DNA of 35,845 nucleotides, taken from the IMG/VR virus record IMGVR_UViG_2671180473_000015; one strand, given 5' to 3'. The stretch comes from a virus (Duplodnaviria > Heunggongvirae > Uroviricota > Caudoviricetes). The notes beneath the pieces are model-generated. The model had not been told where the DNA came from, made no database searches, and was given only the letters and a program-made list of their open reading frames with translations. Positions 10,599 through 35,502 of this stretch are shown one piece after another (positions within the stretch are counted from its first letter, which is position 1; each line of letters begins with the position of its first letter). The translations under genes were made by a program, and so were the position numbers.

Positions 10599-11594
10599 GT
10601 GACCGTGAGAGCACTACTGACCCCTGAAATTGCCCCGCGTATGGGGATCGTATTGTTCAGGCCAGGTTCAGAGCTGATGCCCCTGTTTATGCAGGGGCGT
10701 GTTCTGCTGGAGCCTGAGCCGGAACGTTATTCATCTTTCGCCAGTGGTGCCGTTCCGGCGGCATCACAACCGCTGGCGGATGATCCTGCCGTTCGGGCCG
10801 TGTTCCGCAATGAGGCAGTGATCCGTCGTGCTGGTGGCGTGGAATGTCTTGAAAGCTGGTTACTTCGTGAAAAAGGCTGCCAGTGGCCTCATTCCGACTG
10901 GCACAGCGAGAACATGACCACAATGCGACACGCTCCGGGCGCAATCCGTCTGTGCTGGCACTGCGATAACCAGCTGCGCGATCAGTTCACGGAACGGCTG
11001 GAATCAATGGCAACGGATAACTGTGCCCGCTGGGTGTTGTCTGTTGTGCGTCGGGATCTCGGTTTTGATGATAGTCACGTTGTGACAATGCCGGAACTGT
11101 GCTGGTGGCTGATTCGTAATGACCTGGCGGATGCCTTACCGGAAAGTGCAGCCCGTAAGGCACTGAGATTACCAAAGCCTGTTGTGCCGTCTGTCACCCG
11201 GGAAAGTGACCTTGTGCCTTCGGTTCCTGCCACCAGCATCATCCAGGATAAGGCAAAAAAGGTGCTGGCGCTGAAAGTGGATCCGGAGTCGCCGGAGTCT
11301 TTTATGTTACGCCCAAAACGCCGCCGCTGGGTTAATGAAAAGTACACGCGCTGGGTTAAGACACAGCCGTGTGCATGTTGTGGAAAGCCTGCTGATGATC
11401 CCCACCACCTGATAGGCCACGGTCAGGGTGGAATGGGTACAAAAGCGCATGACCTCTTTGTGTTGCCTTTGTGCAGAAAGCATCACGACGAGCTGCATGC
11501 GGATACCGTGGCATTTGAAGAGAAGTATGGCTCCCAGCTGGAGCTGATATTTCGTTTTATCGATCGTGCGCTGGCAATTGGCGTATTGGCGTAA
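10599..11594 (+). CDS. DUF968 / YdfU-like protein with C-terminal Cys/His zinc-binding (HNH-like) motif
   Basis: 331-aa ORF with GTG start at 10599 (alternative GTG at 10605). C-terminus CACCGKPADDPHHLIGHGQGG...CRKHHDELH. Family assigned from memory. Confidence 0.55.
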   Translation: MTVRALLTPEIAPRMGIVLFRPGSELMPLFMQGRVLLEPEPERYSSFASGAVPAASQPLADDPAVRAVFRNEAVIRRAGGVECLESWLLREKGCQWPHSDWHSENMTTMRHAPGAIRLCWHCDNQLRDQFTERLESMATDNCARWVLSVVRRDLGFDDSHVVTMPELCWWLIRNDLADALPESAARKALRLPKPVVPSVTRESDLVPSVPATSIIQDKAKKVLALKVDPESPESFMLRPKRRRWVNEKYTRWVKTQPCACCGKPADDPHHLIGHGQGGMGTKAHDLFVLPLCRKHHDELHADTVAFEEKYGSQLELIFRFIDRALAIGVLA

Positions 11595-11607
11595 GTGGAG
11601 AACGAGC

Positions 11608-12360
11608 ATGAACCTTGAAGCCTTACCAAAATATTACTCCCCAAAATCTCCAAAATTGAGCGATGACGCACCGGCGACAGGCTCAGGTGGTTTAACGATT
11701 ACGGATGTGATGGCTGCGCAGGGGATGGTGCAGTCGAAAGCACCGCTTGGGTTTGCCTTATTCCTGGCAAAAGTTGGTGTTCAGGATCCTCAATTTGCGA
11801 TTGAAGGTCTGCTCAATTACGCGATGGCACTGGATAACCCGACATTGAACAAATTGAGTGAAGAAACCCGGTTACAGATCATCCCTTACCTTGTGAATTT
11901 TGCCTTTGCTGATTATTCCAGGTCTGCGGCAAGTAAGGCTCGCTGTGAGCATTGTGCTGGTACTGGATTTCATAATGTATTGCGCGAAGTGGTGAAACAC
12001 TCCAGAAGCGGGGAATCTGTTATCAAGGAAGAGTGGGTGAAGGAACTATGTCAGCATTGCCATGGTAAGGGAGAAGTCAGCACAGCGTGCAGAGGGTGTA
12101 AGGGTAAAGGTATTGTCCTGGATGAAAAAAGAACCCGGCTTCATGGTGTGCCTGTTTATAAGATTTGTGGGCGTTGCAATGGCAACCGGTTTAGCCGTTT
12201 ACCAACCACACTGGCGCGGCATCATGTCCAGAAACTGGTACCGGACCTGACGGATTATCAGTGGTACAAAGGATATGCAGACGTTATTAATAAACTGGTT
12301 ACAAAGTGCTGGCAGGAAGAAGCGTATGCTGAATCGCAATTGAGAAAAGTGACAAGATAG
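11608..12360 (+). CDS. Q: late-gene antitermination protein Q
   Basis: 250-aa product from the ATG at 11608 (SD GGAG 7 nt upstream). Paired CxxC zinc-finger motifs (CEHCAGTGF, CQHCHGKGE, CRGCKGKG, CGRCNGNRF) typical of Q antiterminators. Immediately upstream of a promoter-plus-terminator unit. Confidence 0.8.
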   Translation: MNLEALPKYYSPKSPKLSDDAPATGSGGLTITDVMAAQGMVQSKAPLGFALFLAKVGVQDPQFAIEGLLNYAMALDNPTLNKLSEETRLQIIPYLVNFAFADYSRSAASKARCEHCAGTGFHNVLREVVKHSRSGESVIKEEWVKELCQHCHGKGEVSTACRGCKGKGIVLDEKRTRLHGVPVYKICGRCNGNRFSRLPTTLARHHVQKLVPDLTDYQWYKGYADVINKLVTKCWQEEAYAESQLRKVTR

Positions 12361-12391
12361 ATAATTTTCGCCGAAGATGTCGACGTGATAC

Positions 12392-12420
12392 TTGCATTTT
12401 TCAAAAAATATGGATAAGAT
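12392..12420 (+). promoter_or_regulatory. PR'-like late promoter (candidate Q-utilisation region)
   Basis: -35 TTGCAT (12392-12397), 17-nt spacer, -10 TAAGAT (12415-12420). Lies between the Q stop and the tR'-like terminator, as in lambda. Confidence 0.45.
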
Positions 12421-12463
12421 TTTCTCAACGATGGGCCTTGTATGTCTACCGTTGGTAAATGTC

Positions 12464-12490
12464 AAAAACCCGCCGCTGAGCGGGTTTTTT
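12464..12490 (+). terminator. tR'-like rho-independent terminator
   Basis: AAAAACCCGCCGCTGAGCGGGTTTTTTGTGCC: GC stem plus T-run about 45 nt downstream of the candidate late promoter. Confidence 0.7.
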
Positions 12491-12639
12491 GTGCCTGATG
12501 TCTCATGAAACTATGAAATGGATTGGTGCGTTAAACATTTTTTCTTATTATCTTTTAGATTTTGGAGAGATGGTTAACGTCTGTATTCCAGAAACTCGAT
12601 GGTTATTTAATAAATTAGTTTCAATGATGCTTCTAGGTT

Positions 12640-13065
12640 ATGACTGTAATGAAAAAGGTATTAATAGCAGCGATAGGTTTTTGTTTAGTTGGTTGTGCAG
12701 GTATGAAATTACCTGAGTATTCGCAAGTTAAAGCAAGTCCGTATTATACAGATTGCCGTGCGTTTGCCATGGATGTTTATAAAAATGATGGATACAGCAA
12801 AATTGCGAAAACTACTATCCTTAGCATGGATGATGTGAAAGCTAGATATATTGTGACAGGGTGTGTAGTTGCTATGGGGAAAAACACTGTAGAGGAAATC
12901 AAAGCTGATCTCTCTGCTAAAGGGAGTTCTTTTGGGCTTATCAGTGGAGCTTGTTCTAGTGCGGCATGTCGGGTTGATGTAGAGCAGCAAATGAACGCTT
13001 ATGTACTTGGTAGTTATTATGCTGCAAATAAAAAATTCCCGGATAAAATGAAAGCAGAGTTTTAA
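12640..13065 (+). CDS. lipoprotein encoded by an AT-rich moron between Q and the lysis genes
   Basis: 141-aa ORF. Signal peptide with lipobox (MKKVLIAAIGFCLVGCAG; Cys in LVGC). Several further Cys residues. The flanking region 12490-13140 is markedly AT-rich and bounded by two near-identical terminators. Confidence 0.65.
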   Translation: MTVMKKVLIAAIGFCLVGCAGMKLPEYSQVKASPYYTDCRAFAMDVYKNDGYSKIAKTTILSMDDVKARYIVTGCVVAMGKNTVEEIKADLSAKGSSFGLISGACSSAACRVDVEQQMNAYVLGSYYAANKKFPDKMKAEF

Positions 13066-13142
13066 GCAAACCTTGTTTTCGATTATATGTCGAAGATAAA
13101 TGTTAGTAACGGCATAATAAGTAAATATATAGCTGTGATAGC

Positions 13143-13168
13143 AACCCGCCACTGAGCGGGTTTTTTGT
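13143..13168 (+). terminator. second tR'-like terminator (near-duplicate of 12464-12490)
   Basis: CAACCCGCCACTGAGCGGGTTTTTTGTACCC: same stem and T-run as the terminator at 12464-12490 with two substitutions. Confidence 0.7.
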
Positions 13169-13288
13169 ACCCGTAAACTTGGTGCAGTACAGTAAACACG
13201 CTGGTGGTCGTGAATACTGACTTTTTATCTTGCTGGCTTTTTAGACAAGAGTTATTGGTATGTCATGTTAACCAGAAGGGAAAAAGAC

Positions 13289-13492
13289 ATGCTAAAACAG
13301 CAAGATATGACAGAAACCGCCGCCGCAGTCCTTCATTTCTTACCTGCTGACAAGTGGGTAACGCCACGCATGATGACGAGAACTACCGGAGTAAGCGAAG
13401 CCCGGTGCCAGTTAATACTGACTCAGTTAGTTCTGGCGGGTCTGGCGAAGGATAACGGCGGGTACGGGAATAAATTCAGACGCTGCCAGTAA
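13289..13492 (+). CDS. small hypothetical protein (possible winged-helix protein)
   Basis: 67-aa product from an ATG with an AAGGGA SD-like sequence upstream (track ORF 13265..13492). No recognised family. Directly upstream of the second methyltransferase gene. Confidence 0.35.
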   Translation: MLKQQDMTETAAAVLHFLPADKWVTPRMMTRTTGVSEARCQLILTQLVLAGLAKDNGGYGNKFRRCQ

Positions 13493-14697: not shown

Positions 14698-14725
14698 TGG
14701 TGGCCACGTCAGGTGGCCTTTTTAT
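14698..14725 (+). terminator. rho-independent terminator after the methyltransferase gene
   Basis: Stem GGCCAC / GTGGCC with loop GTCAG, followed by TTTTT. Confidence 0.5.
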
Positions 14726-14762
14726 TTCCATTACACAGCACCCGCATCTGCGAGGTGGGGTT

Positions 14763-14900
14763 ATGAAATCCATGGATAAGTTAACAACGGGTGTCGCCTA
14801 TGGCACCTCAGCAGGTAGTGCCGGGTACTGGTTTTTACAGTTGCTCGATAAAGTCACGCCCTCACAGTGGGCGGCAATAGGTGTGCTGGGTAGTCTGGTA
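14763..14900 (+). CDS. S: S21-type pinholin (class II holin), 3' end lost in an N-run
   Basis: ATG at 14763 with [57 protein letters not shown] matches phage 21 S21 ([46 protein letters not shown]) from memory, including the dual-start Met1/Met4 motif. The true stop lies within the N-run (expected near 14978 if 71 aa). Confidence 0.8.
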
Positions 14901-15140
14901 NNNNNNNNNNNNNNNNNNNNNNNNNNNNNNNNNNNNNNNNNNNNNNNNNNNNNNNNNNNNNNNNNNNNNNNNNNNNNNNNNNNNNNNNNNNNNNNNNNNN
15001 NNNNNNNNNNNNNNNNNNNNNNNNNNNNNNNNNNNNNNNNNNNNNNNNNNNNNNNNNNNNNNNNNNNNNNNNNNNNNNNNNNNNNNNNNNNNNNNNNNNN
15101 NNNNNNNNNNNNNNNNNNNNNNNNNNNNNNNNNNNNNNNN
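14901..15140. other. N-run (240 nt) - assembly gap or masked sequence
   Basis: Continuous n characters; removes the holin 3' end and the holin-endolysin junction. Confidence 0.95.
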
Positions 15141-15207
15141 TTAAGTCACTGACCGGAACAGATAAACCTGTCCGTGGGCAGAAACCGATAAATCCTGATA
15201 AATATCC

Positions 15208-15741
15208 ATGAACGCAAAAATCAGATACGGCCTGTCGGCTGCCGTTCTGGCACTGATTGCCGTCGGTGCGCCCGCGCCTGATATTCTCGACCAGTTTCTG
15301 GATGAAAAAGAAGGTAACCACACAACGGCATACCGCGATGGGTCCGGCATCTGGACCATCTGTCGGGGTGCCACGATGGTGGATGGAAAACCCGTTTTTC
15401 CCGGTATGAAACTGTCGAAGGAAAAATGCGACCAGGTCAACGCCATTGAGCGTGATAAGGCGCTGGCATGGGTGGAGCGCAATATTAAAGTACCACTGAC
15501 CGAGCCACAAAAAGCGGGTATCGCGTCATTTTGTCCCTATAACATTGGCCCCGGTAAGTGTTTTCCGTCGACGTTTTATAAGCGGCTGAATGCTGGTGAT
15601 CGTAAAGGTGCATGCGAGGCGATTCGCTGGTGGATAAAAGATGGTGGGCGCGATTGCCGCATACGTTCAAATAACTGCTATGGACAGGTTATTCGTCGTG
15701 ACCAGGAAAGCGCATTAGCCTGTTGGGGGATAGATCAGTGA
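15208..15741 (+). CDS. R: SAR endolysin (signal-arrest-release lysozyme, R21-like)
   Basis: 177-aa ORF. N-terminal weakly hydrophobic SAR segment ([18 protein letters not shown]) followed by E-x8-D-x5-T catalytic spacing ([16 protein letters not shown]). Pairs functionally with the pinholin. Confidence 0.85.
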
Positions 15742-16205
15742 GCAGAGTCGCCGCGATTATTTATGCTCTGGTTATCTGCATCATCGTCTGCCTGTCGTGG
15801 GCGGTCAATCATTACCGTGATAACGCCATCGCCTACAAAGAACAGCGTGATAAAAAAGTCAGTGAGCTGAAGCAGGCGACCGCCACCATTACTGACATGC
15901 AGCAACGCCAGCGTGCTGCTGATGTACTCGATGCTAAATACACGAAGGAGTTGGCTGATGCGAAAGCTGAAAATGATGCTCTTCGGCGCAAGCTTGATAA
16001 TGGTGGTCGGGTGCTCGTCAAAGGAAAATGCCCTGTGCCATCCTCAGCCGAAACCTCCAGCGCCTCCGGCATGGGCAATGATGCCACCGTCGAACTCTCT
16101 CCAGTTGCTGGACGAAACGTTCTCGGTATCCGGGACGGAATCATCAGAGACCAGACAGCACTGAGAACGCTTCAGGAATATATCAGGACGCAATGCCTTC
16201 GATGA
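15738..16205 (+). CDS. Rz: Rz i-spanin
   Basis: GTG start overlapping the endolysin stop (GTGA). N-terminal TM segment ([17 protein letters not shown]) and coiled-coil-like periplasmic domain. Contains Rz1 in the +1 frame. Confidence 0.75.
15958..16164 (+). CDS. Rz1: Rz1 o-spanin (lipoprotein embedded in Rz)
   Basis: ATG at 15958 with strong SD AAGGAG 7 nt upstream. Signal peptide and lipobox ([21 protein letters not shown]) and a Pro-rich mature region ([16 protein letters not shown]). Fully inside Rz in a different frame. Confidence 0.75.
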
Positions 16206-16379
16206 TAGCGATAATTTTACTCATCATCCTTCACATTTGGCTCTGTAGACAGGGTGGTGATCACTTCTGGAGTGAATCCAGATTAAACATCTCATTGCTG
16301 ATGCTTGAAGTTGAGCATCTGGCGCGCGGTAAGGGGCTGCGTTGAAATAAGAGCCAGTCATTAAAAATACCTGGATTTA

Positions 16380-16405
16380 GCCTCGCATTCGCGGGGCTTT
16401 TTATT
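16380..16405 (+). terminator. candidate rho-independent terminator downstream of the lysis cassette
   Basis: Stem GCCTCGC / GCGGGGC (one G-U) with loop ATTC followed by TTTTT. A second perfect 8-bp hairpin (AGCCACTC / GAGTGGCT) follows at about 16417-16438. Confidence 0.4.
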
Positions 16406-29886: not shown

Positions 29887-30545
29887 ATGCAGGATATTCC
29901 ACAGGAAACACATCATGAGACGACACGCCTCACTCAGTCAGCCCAGGTGGTGCTCTGGGAAATCGATCTGACAGAGGTCGGTGGAGAACGTTATTTTTTC
30001 TGTAATGAGCAGAACGAAAAAGGTGAGCCGGTCACCTGGCAGGGGCGACAGTATCAGGCGTATCCCATTCAGGGGACGGGATTTGAACTGAACGGCAAGG
30101 GCAGTGCTGCCCGTCCGNGGCGGAAGATCTGCAGAGTCTGGTCGGCGGAACGGTGGTCCGGCGTAAGGTTTACGCCCGTTTTCTGGATGCGGTGAACTTC
30201 GTCAACGGAAACAGTGACGCCGATCCGGAGCAGGAGGTGATCAGCCGCTGGCGCATCGAGCAGTGCAGCGAACTGAGCGCGGTGAGTGCCTCTTTTGTAC
30301 TGTCCACGCCGACGGAAACGGACGGTGCCGTTTTTCCGGGGCGCATCATGCTTGCTAATACCTGCACCTGGACCTATCGCGGCGATGAGTGCGGTTATCA
30401 CGGTCCGGCGGTCGCGGATGAATATGATCAGCCGACGTCCGATATCACGAAGGATAAATGCAGCAAATGCCTGAGCGGCTGTAAGTTTCGCAATAACGTC
30501 GGCAACTTTGGCGGCTTCCTTTCCATTAACAAACTTTCGCAGTAA
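29887..30545 (+). CDS. L: minor tail protein L, reading frame broken at a single N (likely collapsed assembly gap)
   Basis: N-terminal part (track ORF 29887..30195) and C-terminal part (30153..30545) both match lambda L almost residue-for-residue from memory. About 14 codons expected between ...GKGSAARP and AEDLQSLVGG are missing exactly at the n at 30118. Confidence 0.75.
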
Positions 30546-31294: not shown

Positions 31295-31896
31295 AAACGG
31301 GGTCCGAAGCCATCCGGGCGCTGGCCATGCAGATCCCGGCGTTTCGTCAGAAACTGAATGAGGGCTGGTATCAGGTGCGCATTGCCGGGCGTGATGCAGG
31401 CGAAAATGAATTATCTGCCCGTCTTAATGAGCCGCTGGCAAATGGTGCCGTGATCCACATCGTGCCGCGTCTGGCGGGAGCTAAAAGTGGCGGTGTGTTT
31501 CAGGTGGTGCTTGGGGCGGCGCTGATTGCGGTGGCATGGTGGAACCCTGTGGGCTGGCTGGGGNNNNNNNNNNNNNNNNNNNNNNNNNNNNNNNNNNNNN
31601 NNNNNNNNNNNNNNNNNNNNNNNNNNNNNNNNNNNNNNNNNNNNNNNNNNNNNNNNNNNNNNNNNNNNNNNNNNNNNNNNNNNNNNNNNNNNNNNNNNNN
31701 NNNNNNNNNNNNNNNNNNNNNNNNNNNNNNNNNNNNNNNNNNNNNNNNNNNNNNNNNNNNNNNNNNNNNNNNNNNNNNNNNNNNNNNNNNNNNNNNNNNN
31801 NNNNNNNNNNNNNNNNNNNNNNNNNNNNNNNNNNNNNNNNNNNTCAGCACGGCAGACGAAGGGGATGGTGGTCAGGTTGTGGTGATTGGTCGCTGA
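31192..31896 (+). CDS. I: tail assembly protein I (interrupted by an N-run)
   Basis: Starts MAATHTLPLASPGMARICLYGDLQRFGRRIDLRV as in lambda I. Overlaps the 3' end of K in another frame, as in lambda. The middle is lost in the N-run 31564-31843. Ends ...STADEGDGGQVVVIGR. Confidence 0.75.
   Translation: MAATHTLPLASPGMARICLYGDLQRFGRRIDLRVKTGSEAIRALAMQIPAFRQKLNEGWYQVRIAGRDAGENELSARLNEPLANGAVIHIVPRLAGAKSGGVFQVVLGAALIAVAWWNPVGWLGXXXXXXXXXXXXXXXXXXXXXXXXXXXXXXXXXXXXXXXXXXXXXXXXXXXXXXXXXXXXXXXXXXXXXXXXXXXXXXXXXXXXXXXXXXXXXXSTADEGDGGQVVVIGR
31564..31843. other. N-run (280 nt) - assembly gap or masked sequence
   Basis: Continuous n characters inside gene I. Confidence 0.95.

Positions 31897-31956: not shown

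Positions 31957-35502
<3,546 letters not shown>

Follow-up and report, generated by a model that had tools for sequence, protein, structure and literature searches.

What lies between the holin and the endolysin of a lysis cassette when the DNA that should join them is given only as a run of Ns? The question is raised by IMG/VR record IMGVR_UViG_2671180473_000015, a virus of the class Caudoviricetes whose 35,845 nucleotides, the whole stretch that was analysed, we call the window. Its positions 14763-16205 are a run of open reading frames (ORFs), all on the + strand, broken by such a gap. We consider it very probable, from comparisons of sequence, that these positions are the late-operon lysis module of a lambdoid Escherichia coli prophage, ordered S-ydfR-R-Rz/Rz1-50-aa ORF and flanked by two intrinsic terminators. 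The gap probably hides the 3′ end of the holin gene S together with a complete 116-codon gene of the YdfR family (DUF1327). The layout would then be S-ydfR-R, and an S-R junction is probably absent from this phage.

For the genes that can be seen, identities, frames, motifs and homology to prototypes are established, every visible lysis gene having been assigned by both Pfam and PHROG with matches that chance would not produce. The parts on which the argument turns are these.

14752..14757, + strand: Shine-Dalgarno sequence GAGGTG for the holin, aligning with the annotated S21 ribosome-binding site of OL657228
14763..14900, + strand: holin S, visible codons 1-46 from an ATG start, EssD-type member of the P21 holin S family (PF04971)
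14901..15140, no strand: scaffold gap, 240 N as read from the window, length unreliable
15142..15144, + strand: TAA, second to fourth bases after the N-run, the probable stop of the hidden YdfR-family gene and its only visible piece
15208..15741, + strand: endolysin R, a 177-aa GH24 lysozyme (PF00959, E 1.4e-24)
15738..16205, + strand: inner-membrane spanin (i-spanin) Rz, 155 aa, GTG start (PF03245, E 6.9e-29; phrog_13, E 4.6e-73)
15958..16164, + strand: outer-membrane spanin (o-spanin) Rz1, 68 aa, in the +1 frame (PF06085, E 3.7e-21; phrog_3198)

The lysis genes in view

What kind of holin is this, given that only 46 of its codons can be read? Against PF04971 (“Bacteriophage P21 holin S”) the fragment scores 73.4 bits (E 1.5e-20, where the cut-off is 26), and the full 71-aa holin of a collinear relative scores 121 bits. 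Over the 46 visible residues, identity is 100% with K-12 EssD, likewise 100% with the 71-aa holin of the relatives, and 87% with S21-71 of phage 21. These residues take in the first transmembrane domain (TMD1) and the start of TMD2; the rest lies inside the N-run and is complete in the relative. The gene opens with the dual-start motif Met1-Lys2-Ser3-Met4, and one Shine-Dalgarno sequence would serve both predicted starts, Met1 (14763) and, 9 nt on, Met4 (14772). In phage 21 itself (OL657228; PMC9119081; Young laboratory), S21-71 is the antiholin and S21-68 the pinholin, and a signal-anchor-release (SAR) endolysin, an i-spanin and an o-spanin follow. The dual start that the initial annotation saw in MKSMDK holds up well: the hexapeptide is the same in S21, whose two products are annotated in that record, and the reading of a P21-type dual-start pinholin is backed by homology to prototypes that have been studied. 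We have taken 14763 as the start because the homologous S21 start and its ribosome site align there. A 92-codon ORF from GTG 14700, the form annotated in phage mEp460, was rejected, its start falling inside a terminator hairpin.

By analogy, then, the holin would be a class II pinholin of the phage-21 family, making small holes. S21-68 forms nanometre-scale heptameric channels that do not release a cytoplasmic endolysin (review, PMC9636201). The holin of 933W (L008, 1331-1546) begins MYQM, which keeps the Met1/Met4 spacing without Lys2, and it is Lys2 that gives S21-71 its antiholin character; the logic of the dual start may therefore differ among P21-family holins.

The endolysin R poses a question of its own: how does it reach the cell wall? 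Its catalytic motif is E35-x8-D44-x5-T50, its domain aligns with that of R21 (3HDE), and its relatives in the PDB are R21 (3HDE/3HDF) and RrrD (4ZPU). It has 8 Cys, none of them in the anchor. The N-terminus carries K4 and R6 and then an 18-residue stretch (approximately residues 7-24) that is 50% Gly/Ala/Ser/Thr (6 Ala, 2 Gly, 1 Ser), and the peak Kyte-Doolittle hydropathy over 15 residues is 2.15 for this anchor vs 3.2 for the Rz TMD. A weakly hydrophobic N-terminal TMD preceded by 1-3 basic residues is what is asked of a SAR domain (PMC9239132). The protein is identical to R of the relative, 92% identical to R of 933W (handled as a SAR endolysin by the Young laboratory; PMC9239132) and 94% identical to K-12 RrrQ, against 34% identity to R21. 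These features support the view that R is a SAR endolysin of the 933W R / RrrQ subfamily with a predicted N-terminal anchor. The SAR segment claimed in the initial annotation is supported by the sequence. The alignment against R21 that it proposed shows that R is not an R21 orthologue and belongs with 933W R and RrrQ.

One might prefer to see in R an enzyme secreted by way of a signal peptide that is cleaved off, or else a stably anchored one, and in either case an enzyme that the holin does not control by depolarisation. The N-terminus does look like a signal peptide, with its basic n-region, hydrophobic core and A-P-A. Proline at the +1 position, however, blocks signal peptidase I. Each possible A-x-A site in R is followed by proline, as it is in 933W R and in RrrQ, which argues against cleavage. 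The composition of the hydrophobic core is moreover that of SAR domains (PMC9239132), the close kin in 933W is treated as one, and the gene stands together with a pinholin of the P21 family, with which SAR endolysins are usually found (PMC9636201, PMC8136144). We find the secreted or fixed enzyme highly improbable and keep to the SAR endolysin, all the more readily as pinholin plus SAR endolysin is the rule in Stx and lambdoid phages and is found in almost all Stx phages (PMC8136144, PMC10462455).

The spanins need less argument. The GTG start of Rz overlaps the R stop as GTGA, and PGAP gives the same start in the relative. Rz has a TMD at residues 4-22 and periplasmic Cys98 and Cys153. Its partner Rz1 starts at ATG 15958, with AAGGAG at 15945-15950, 7 nt upstream, and carries the lipobox VVGC with Cys19, 8 Pro in a 50-aa mature part, and Cys27. 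Rz1 lies wholly inside Rz, at 0.47-0.91 of its length, a position typical of embedded spanins (PMC6139136). The full embedding, +1 frame and strong Shine-Dalgarno sequence of the initial annotation are all as we find them. Rz C98/C153 and Rz1 C27 parallel lambda Rz C99/C152 and Rz1 C29 (PMC6139136), and the same disulfides may be predicted here. Identity to the phage 21 proteins is 58% for Rz and 48% for Rz1.

Put together on the model of the phage 21 and 933W prototypes (PMC9636201, PMC9239132), lysis would run as follows. Initiation at Met4 would give an active 68-aa pinholin and initiation at Met1 a 71-aa antiholin, whose extra Lys2 would slow the exit of TMD1 from the membrane. Sec would export R, which its weakly hydrophobic N-terminal anchor would keep in the inner membrane in an inactive state. 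At the programmed time the pinholin would open many nanometre-scale channels and the proton-motive force would collapse; the R anchor would then leave the bilayer, and the lysozyme would refold and cleave murein. In the last step, a periplasm-spanning Rz-Rz1 complex would disrupt the outer membrane. The initial annotation called all of this unambiguous, which goes too far: the holin's final third is hidden, and with it most of TMD2, and the gap's content, the use of both holin starts, the size of the pinholes and the SAR domain's release are things that we infer rather than observe.

The gap between holin and endolysin

If the visible genes are secure, what of the piece that cannot be seen? 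In the relatives, the interval that corresponds to the gap is 429 nt long and consists of holin codons 47-71 with their TAA, the 4 nt TTCA, and ydfR codons 1-116. The bases just beyond the N-run fit this arrangement, as 15142-15144 corresponds to L001 3732-3734, the stop of an annotated YdfR family protein (WP_001545374.1). The 67 nt visible before R are accordingly a ydfR stop codon and its downstream spacer, not a holin-endolysin junction.

How general is this spacing? The exact flanks of the gap, used as a pattern on IMG/VR, occurred exactly 429 nt apart in 21 of 21 viral contigs when distances of 415-445 nt were searched, and no IMG/VR match had them 225-255 nt apart; a genome-contig collection with one genome per species gave no match at either spacing. 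The best 20 E. coli matches, at 99.7-99.9% identity, each span 1990 nt for a query of 1801 nt, and all are annotated with EssD, YdfR family protein, lysozyme and lysis protein. Of the sampled E. coli matches extending to the base that directly follows the gap, all (14/14) have YdfR annotated beneath them. In pattern counts over 80 ydfR loci from IMG/VR, the start of ydfR has the holin stop 4 nt upstream of it in every case (80/80), and the lysozyme catalytic motif lies at the same downstream distance in at least 64. The initial annotation had thought two things hidden by the Ns, the 3′ end of the holin and the junction of holin with endolysin; the first stands, and the second gives way in close relatives to 429 nt with an additional gene. 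It had also counted a different gene in the gap as evidence against its reading, and half of that has come about: there is an extra gene in the relatives, yet their holin frame is intact.

Why, then, are there 240 Ns rather than 429? The window has five N-runs, and their lengths agree poorly with the collinear relative: 240 vs 429, 280 vs 223, 227 vs 262 and 1 vs 41 nt. They are therefore scaffold gaps of estimated size, of no use for keeping a reading frame. (The other four lie in the tail-gene region, at 30118 [1], 31564-31843 [280], 32455-32681 [227] and 34451-34666 [216]; across the last of these, approximately 322 nt in the relative stand against 403 nt in the window.) The break itself has a ready explanation, because an E. 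coli genome has the lysis genes in 3 places (median), which is enough to interrupt a short-read assembly.

Several observations weigh against the reading of the module that we prefer. Holin codons 47-71 and the ydfR codons would lie within the N-run, where an insertion, a frameshift or another allele is possible, and the nominal gap of 240 nt falls short of the 429 nt seen in the relatives. R has no recognisable Shine-Dalgarno sequence in 15145-15207 (…CCTGATAAATATCCATG), and its start, 63 nt past the ydfR stop, shows no start/stop coupling of the kind seen in Qin rrrQ. A leader hairpin (approximately 14739-14757) that would pair with GAGGTG folds no better than shuffled controls (z = 0.13 and 0.45), and on those values no RNA control of the dual start through this hairpin is proposed.

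An upstream ORF coupled to R was also looked for and rejected: the reading frame closing with the ATGA where R begins stays open over just 30 codons, none of which can serve as a start. This frame looks like a relic of a longer ydfR 3′ end.

Could the assembly have broken because the prophage is a decayed remnant, with an insertion sequence (IS) element, for instance, interrupting the holin or ydfR inside the gap? K-12 keeps these genes in two cryptic prophages, DLP12 and Qin, an IS3 insertion and a frameshifted rusA are seen in this same prophage of the close relative O177:H21, and assembly gaps often mark repeats. Against this stand the copy number of the lysis genes, which alone accounts for the break, the intact state of all the visible lysis ORFs, with an R that matches the one in the relative, and terminase, portal, capsid and tail genes that are full-length in the window and collinear with those of the relative. 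We therefore give decay very little weight. Least probable of all, and by our judgment barely tenable, is the original picture of a gap that holds only the holin 3′ end and a short junction, with S abutting R as it adjoins or overlaps R in phage 21 and 933W and as an N-run of only 240 nt might suggest: the holin needs just 78 more nt, the 67 visible nt are identical to the ydfR stop and spacer of ydfR-carrying relatives, the exact flanks are found at 429 nt and never at 225-255 nt, and the other N-runs in the window are no better guides to length. The reading that survives is the one in which the gap probably holds the end of the holin and the whole of ydfR.

YdfR and its known settings

What might such a gene be doing there? 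The 116-codon YdfR protein of the relative scores 144 bits against PF07041 (DUF1327). The family is narrow (313 clusters at 90% identity, with names almost all from Escherichia and Shigella), and its members, 103-183 aa in total, share a conserved N-terminal part of approximately 77-113 residues and differ in their C-termini. At least four unrelated C-termini can be told apart, in forms of 103, 104, 114-116 and 172-183 aa, the long forms (172-183 aa) having an extra helical, charged tail (…EKLEKKLSVLIPSEDEKKRRDEQFAAFYDY…). YdfR has no TMD and, by sequence, no relative of solved structure. An AlphaFold2 model built from 25 homologues is only moderate (mean predicted local distance difference test score, pLDDT, of 59), with a beta-beta-beta-alpha core at residues 4-73 (pLDDT 63-84) and an unreliable C-terminus; Foldseek found nothing in the PDB for this model with E below 0.06. 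Weak Foldseek matches to a PUR repeat and to a double-stranded RNA-binding domain were dismissed as not meaningful.

According to a 2026 paper (PMC13232886), K-12 YdfR binds to RNase E in the catalytic half of that enzyme, and it also co-purifies with RNA, so that a YdfR protein could act on the lysis transcript or on late mRNAs. One may then imagine ydfR as a functional accessory of the pinholin/SAR-endolysin cassette and not its passive passenger, adjusting how stable the lysis transcript is or how it is translated, and through this the timing of lysis, or shielding late mRNAs from the degradosome. We put this forward as an unlikely idea. The position of the gene is constant, 4 nt past the holin stop and just ahead of a lysozyme of the 933W/RrrQ type.

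Some database proteins (P0016, P0032, P0040, P0082, P0092, P0109 and P0118; 139-187 aa) carry PF04971 and PF07041 in one polypeptide, P0040 being an example of holin joined to YdfR (…KIREDRRKAARESNSMTQNYEL…). These may be real frameshift fusions or errors of assembly.

How does the module compare with the systems from which its workings are borrowed? Phage 21 (OL657228) is alike in holin family, in MKSMDK, in an N-terminally anchored GH24 lysozyme, and in an embedded +1 Rz1. It is unlike in that R21 has 165 aa against 177 aa here, with 34% identity and unrelated anchor sequences, in that its S overlaps R with no gene between, and in having bor after Rz where the 50-aa ORF stands in the window. 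The K-12 prophage Qin shares the order, as essQ-ydfR-rrrQ-rzpQ/rzoQ, with RrrQ at 94% and EssQ at 93% identity (the latter over the visible holin); its YdfR, however, has 103 aa, is 64% identical, ends in another C-terminus and shares an ATGA overlap with the start of rrrQ, and its spanin RzpQ (DUF2514) comes from another family. In 933W, R (92%), a holin of the P21 family (82%) and an embedded Rz1 are all alike, whereas no ydfR lies between S and R, and ant lies between R and Rz. Closer still are the isolated temperate coliphages mEp460, PhiR40_1 and PhiR55_1, in which the module runs methylase-holin-YdfR-lysozyme-Rz-50-aa ORF at 97% nucleotide identity (mEp460 differing in its 104-aa YdfR variant), and the O177:H21 / JJ1886 prophage, which has the same module at up to 99.9% identity. 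In this group there is next to no difference from the window, Rz showing a single amino-acid change (P99 vs S99).

The edges of the module

Three further features lie at the borders of the block.

14702..14718, + strand: intrinsic terminator separating the DNA methylase gene from the holin (GGCCAC-loop-GTGGCC, then TTTTTATTT; terminator scan)
16193..16345, + strand: conserved 50-aa ORF (phrog_11822, unknown function; E 8.6e-38)
16379..16398, + strand: intrinsic terminator closing the lysis block (8-bp GC-rich stem, then TTTTTATT; terminator scan)

On the upstream side are the Q antiterminator (11566-12360, PF03589) and an N6/N4 DNA methylase, on the downstream side a DUF1441 protein as well as the large terminase, a setting that marks this as the lysis block of the late operon of a lambdoid prophage. 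The terminator at 14702-14718 folds at -12.2 kcal/mol (z = -2.2) and is annotated as “terminator” in phage Ayreon; Q-antiterminated late transcription presumably reads through it. The one at 16379-16398 folds at -15.4 kcal/mol (z = -2.45), and Ayreon has a terminator annotated at the equivalent place. The last ORF before that second terminator is the 50-aa one, which has an N-terminal hydrophobic helix, a 13-nt overlap with the end of Rz and AGGA 4 nt upstream. Records of E. coli relatives and of the phages mEp460, Ayreon and PhiR40_1 list it as a hypothetical protein, and the lysis block may have in it a membrane component that has so far gone unrecognised.

Farther upstream, between the Q antiterminator and the methylase, 12640-13065 (+) encodes a 141-aa predicted lipoprotein (MTVMKKVLIAAIGFCLVGCAG…) without a Pfam match; a terminator at 13143-13162 follows, and then a 75-aa ORF (13265-13492, +), likewise without a Pfam match. 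The ORFs in 12640-13492 are moron-like cargo, at the position that the stx genes hold in Stx phages. At 11590-13143 the window and the O177:H21 relative differ.

None of the content of this cassette is new. It is already known and extremely common, and the remark of the initial annotation that this is well-described biology is fair: the pinholin / SAR-endolysin / embedded-spanin pathway is textbook, and the module is at least 99.7% identical in the 20 complete E. coli genomes that match it best. What the locus teaches is perhaps more practical, namely that an “invisible junction” within an N-run of unreliable length can hide a whole gene, so that relatives should be consulted whenever annotation is carried over a gap of this kind. 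The YdfR/DUF1327 gene and the 50-aa membrane ORF are, for their part, both conserved members of a lysis cassette.

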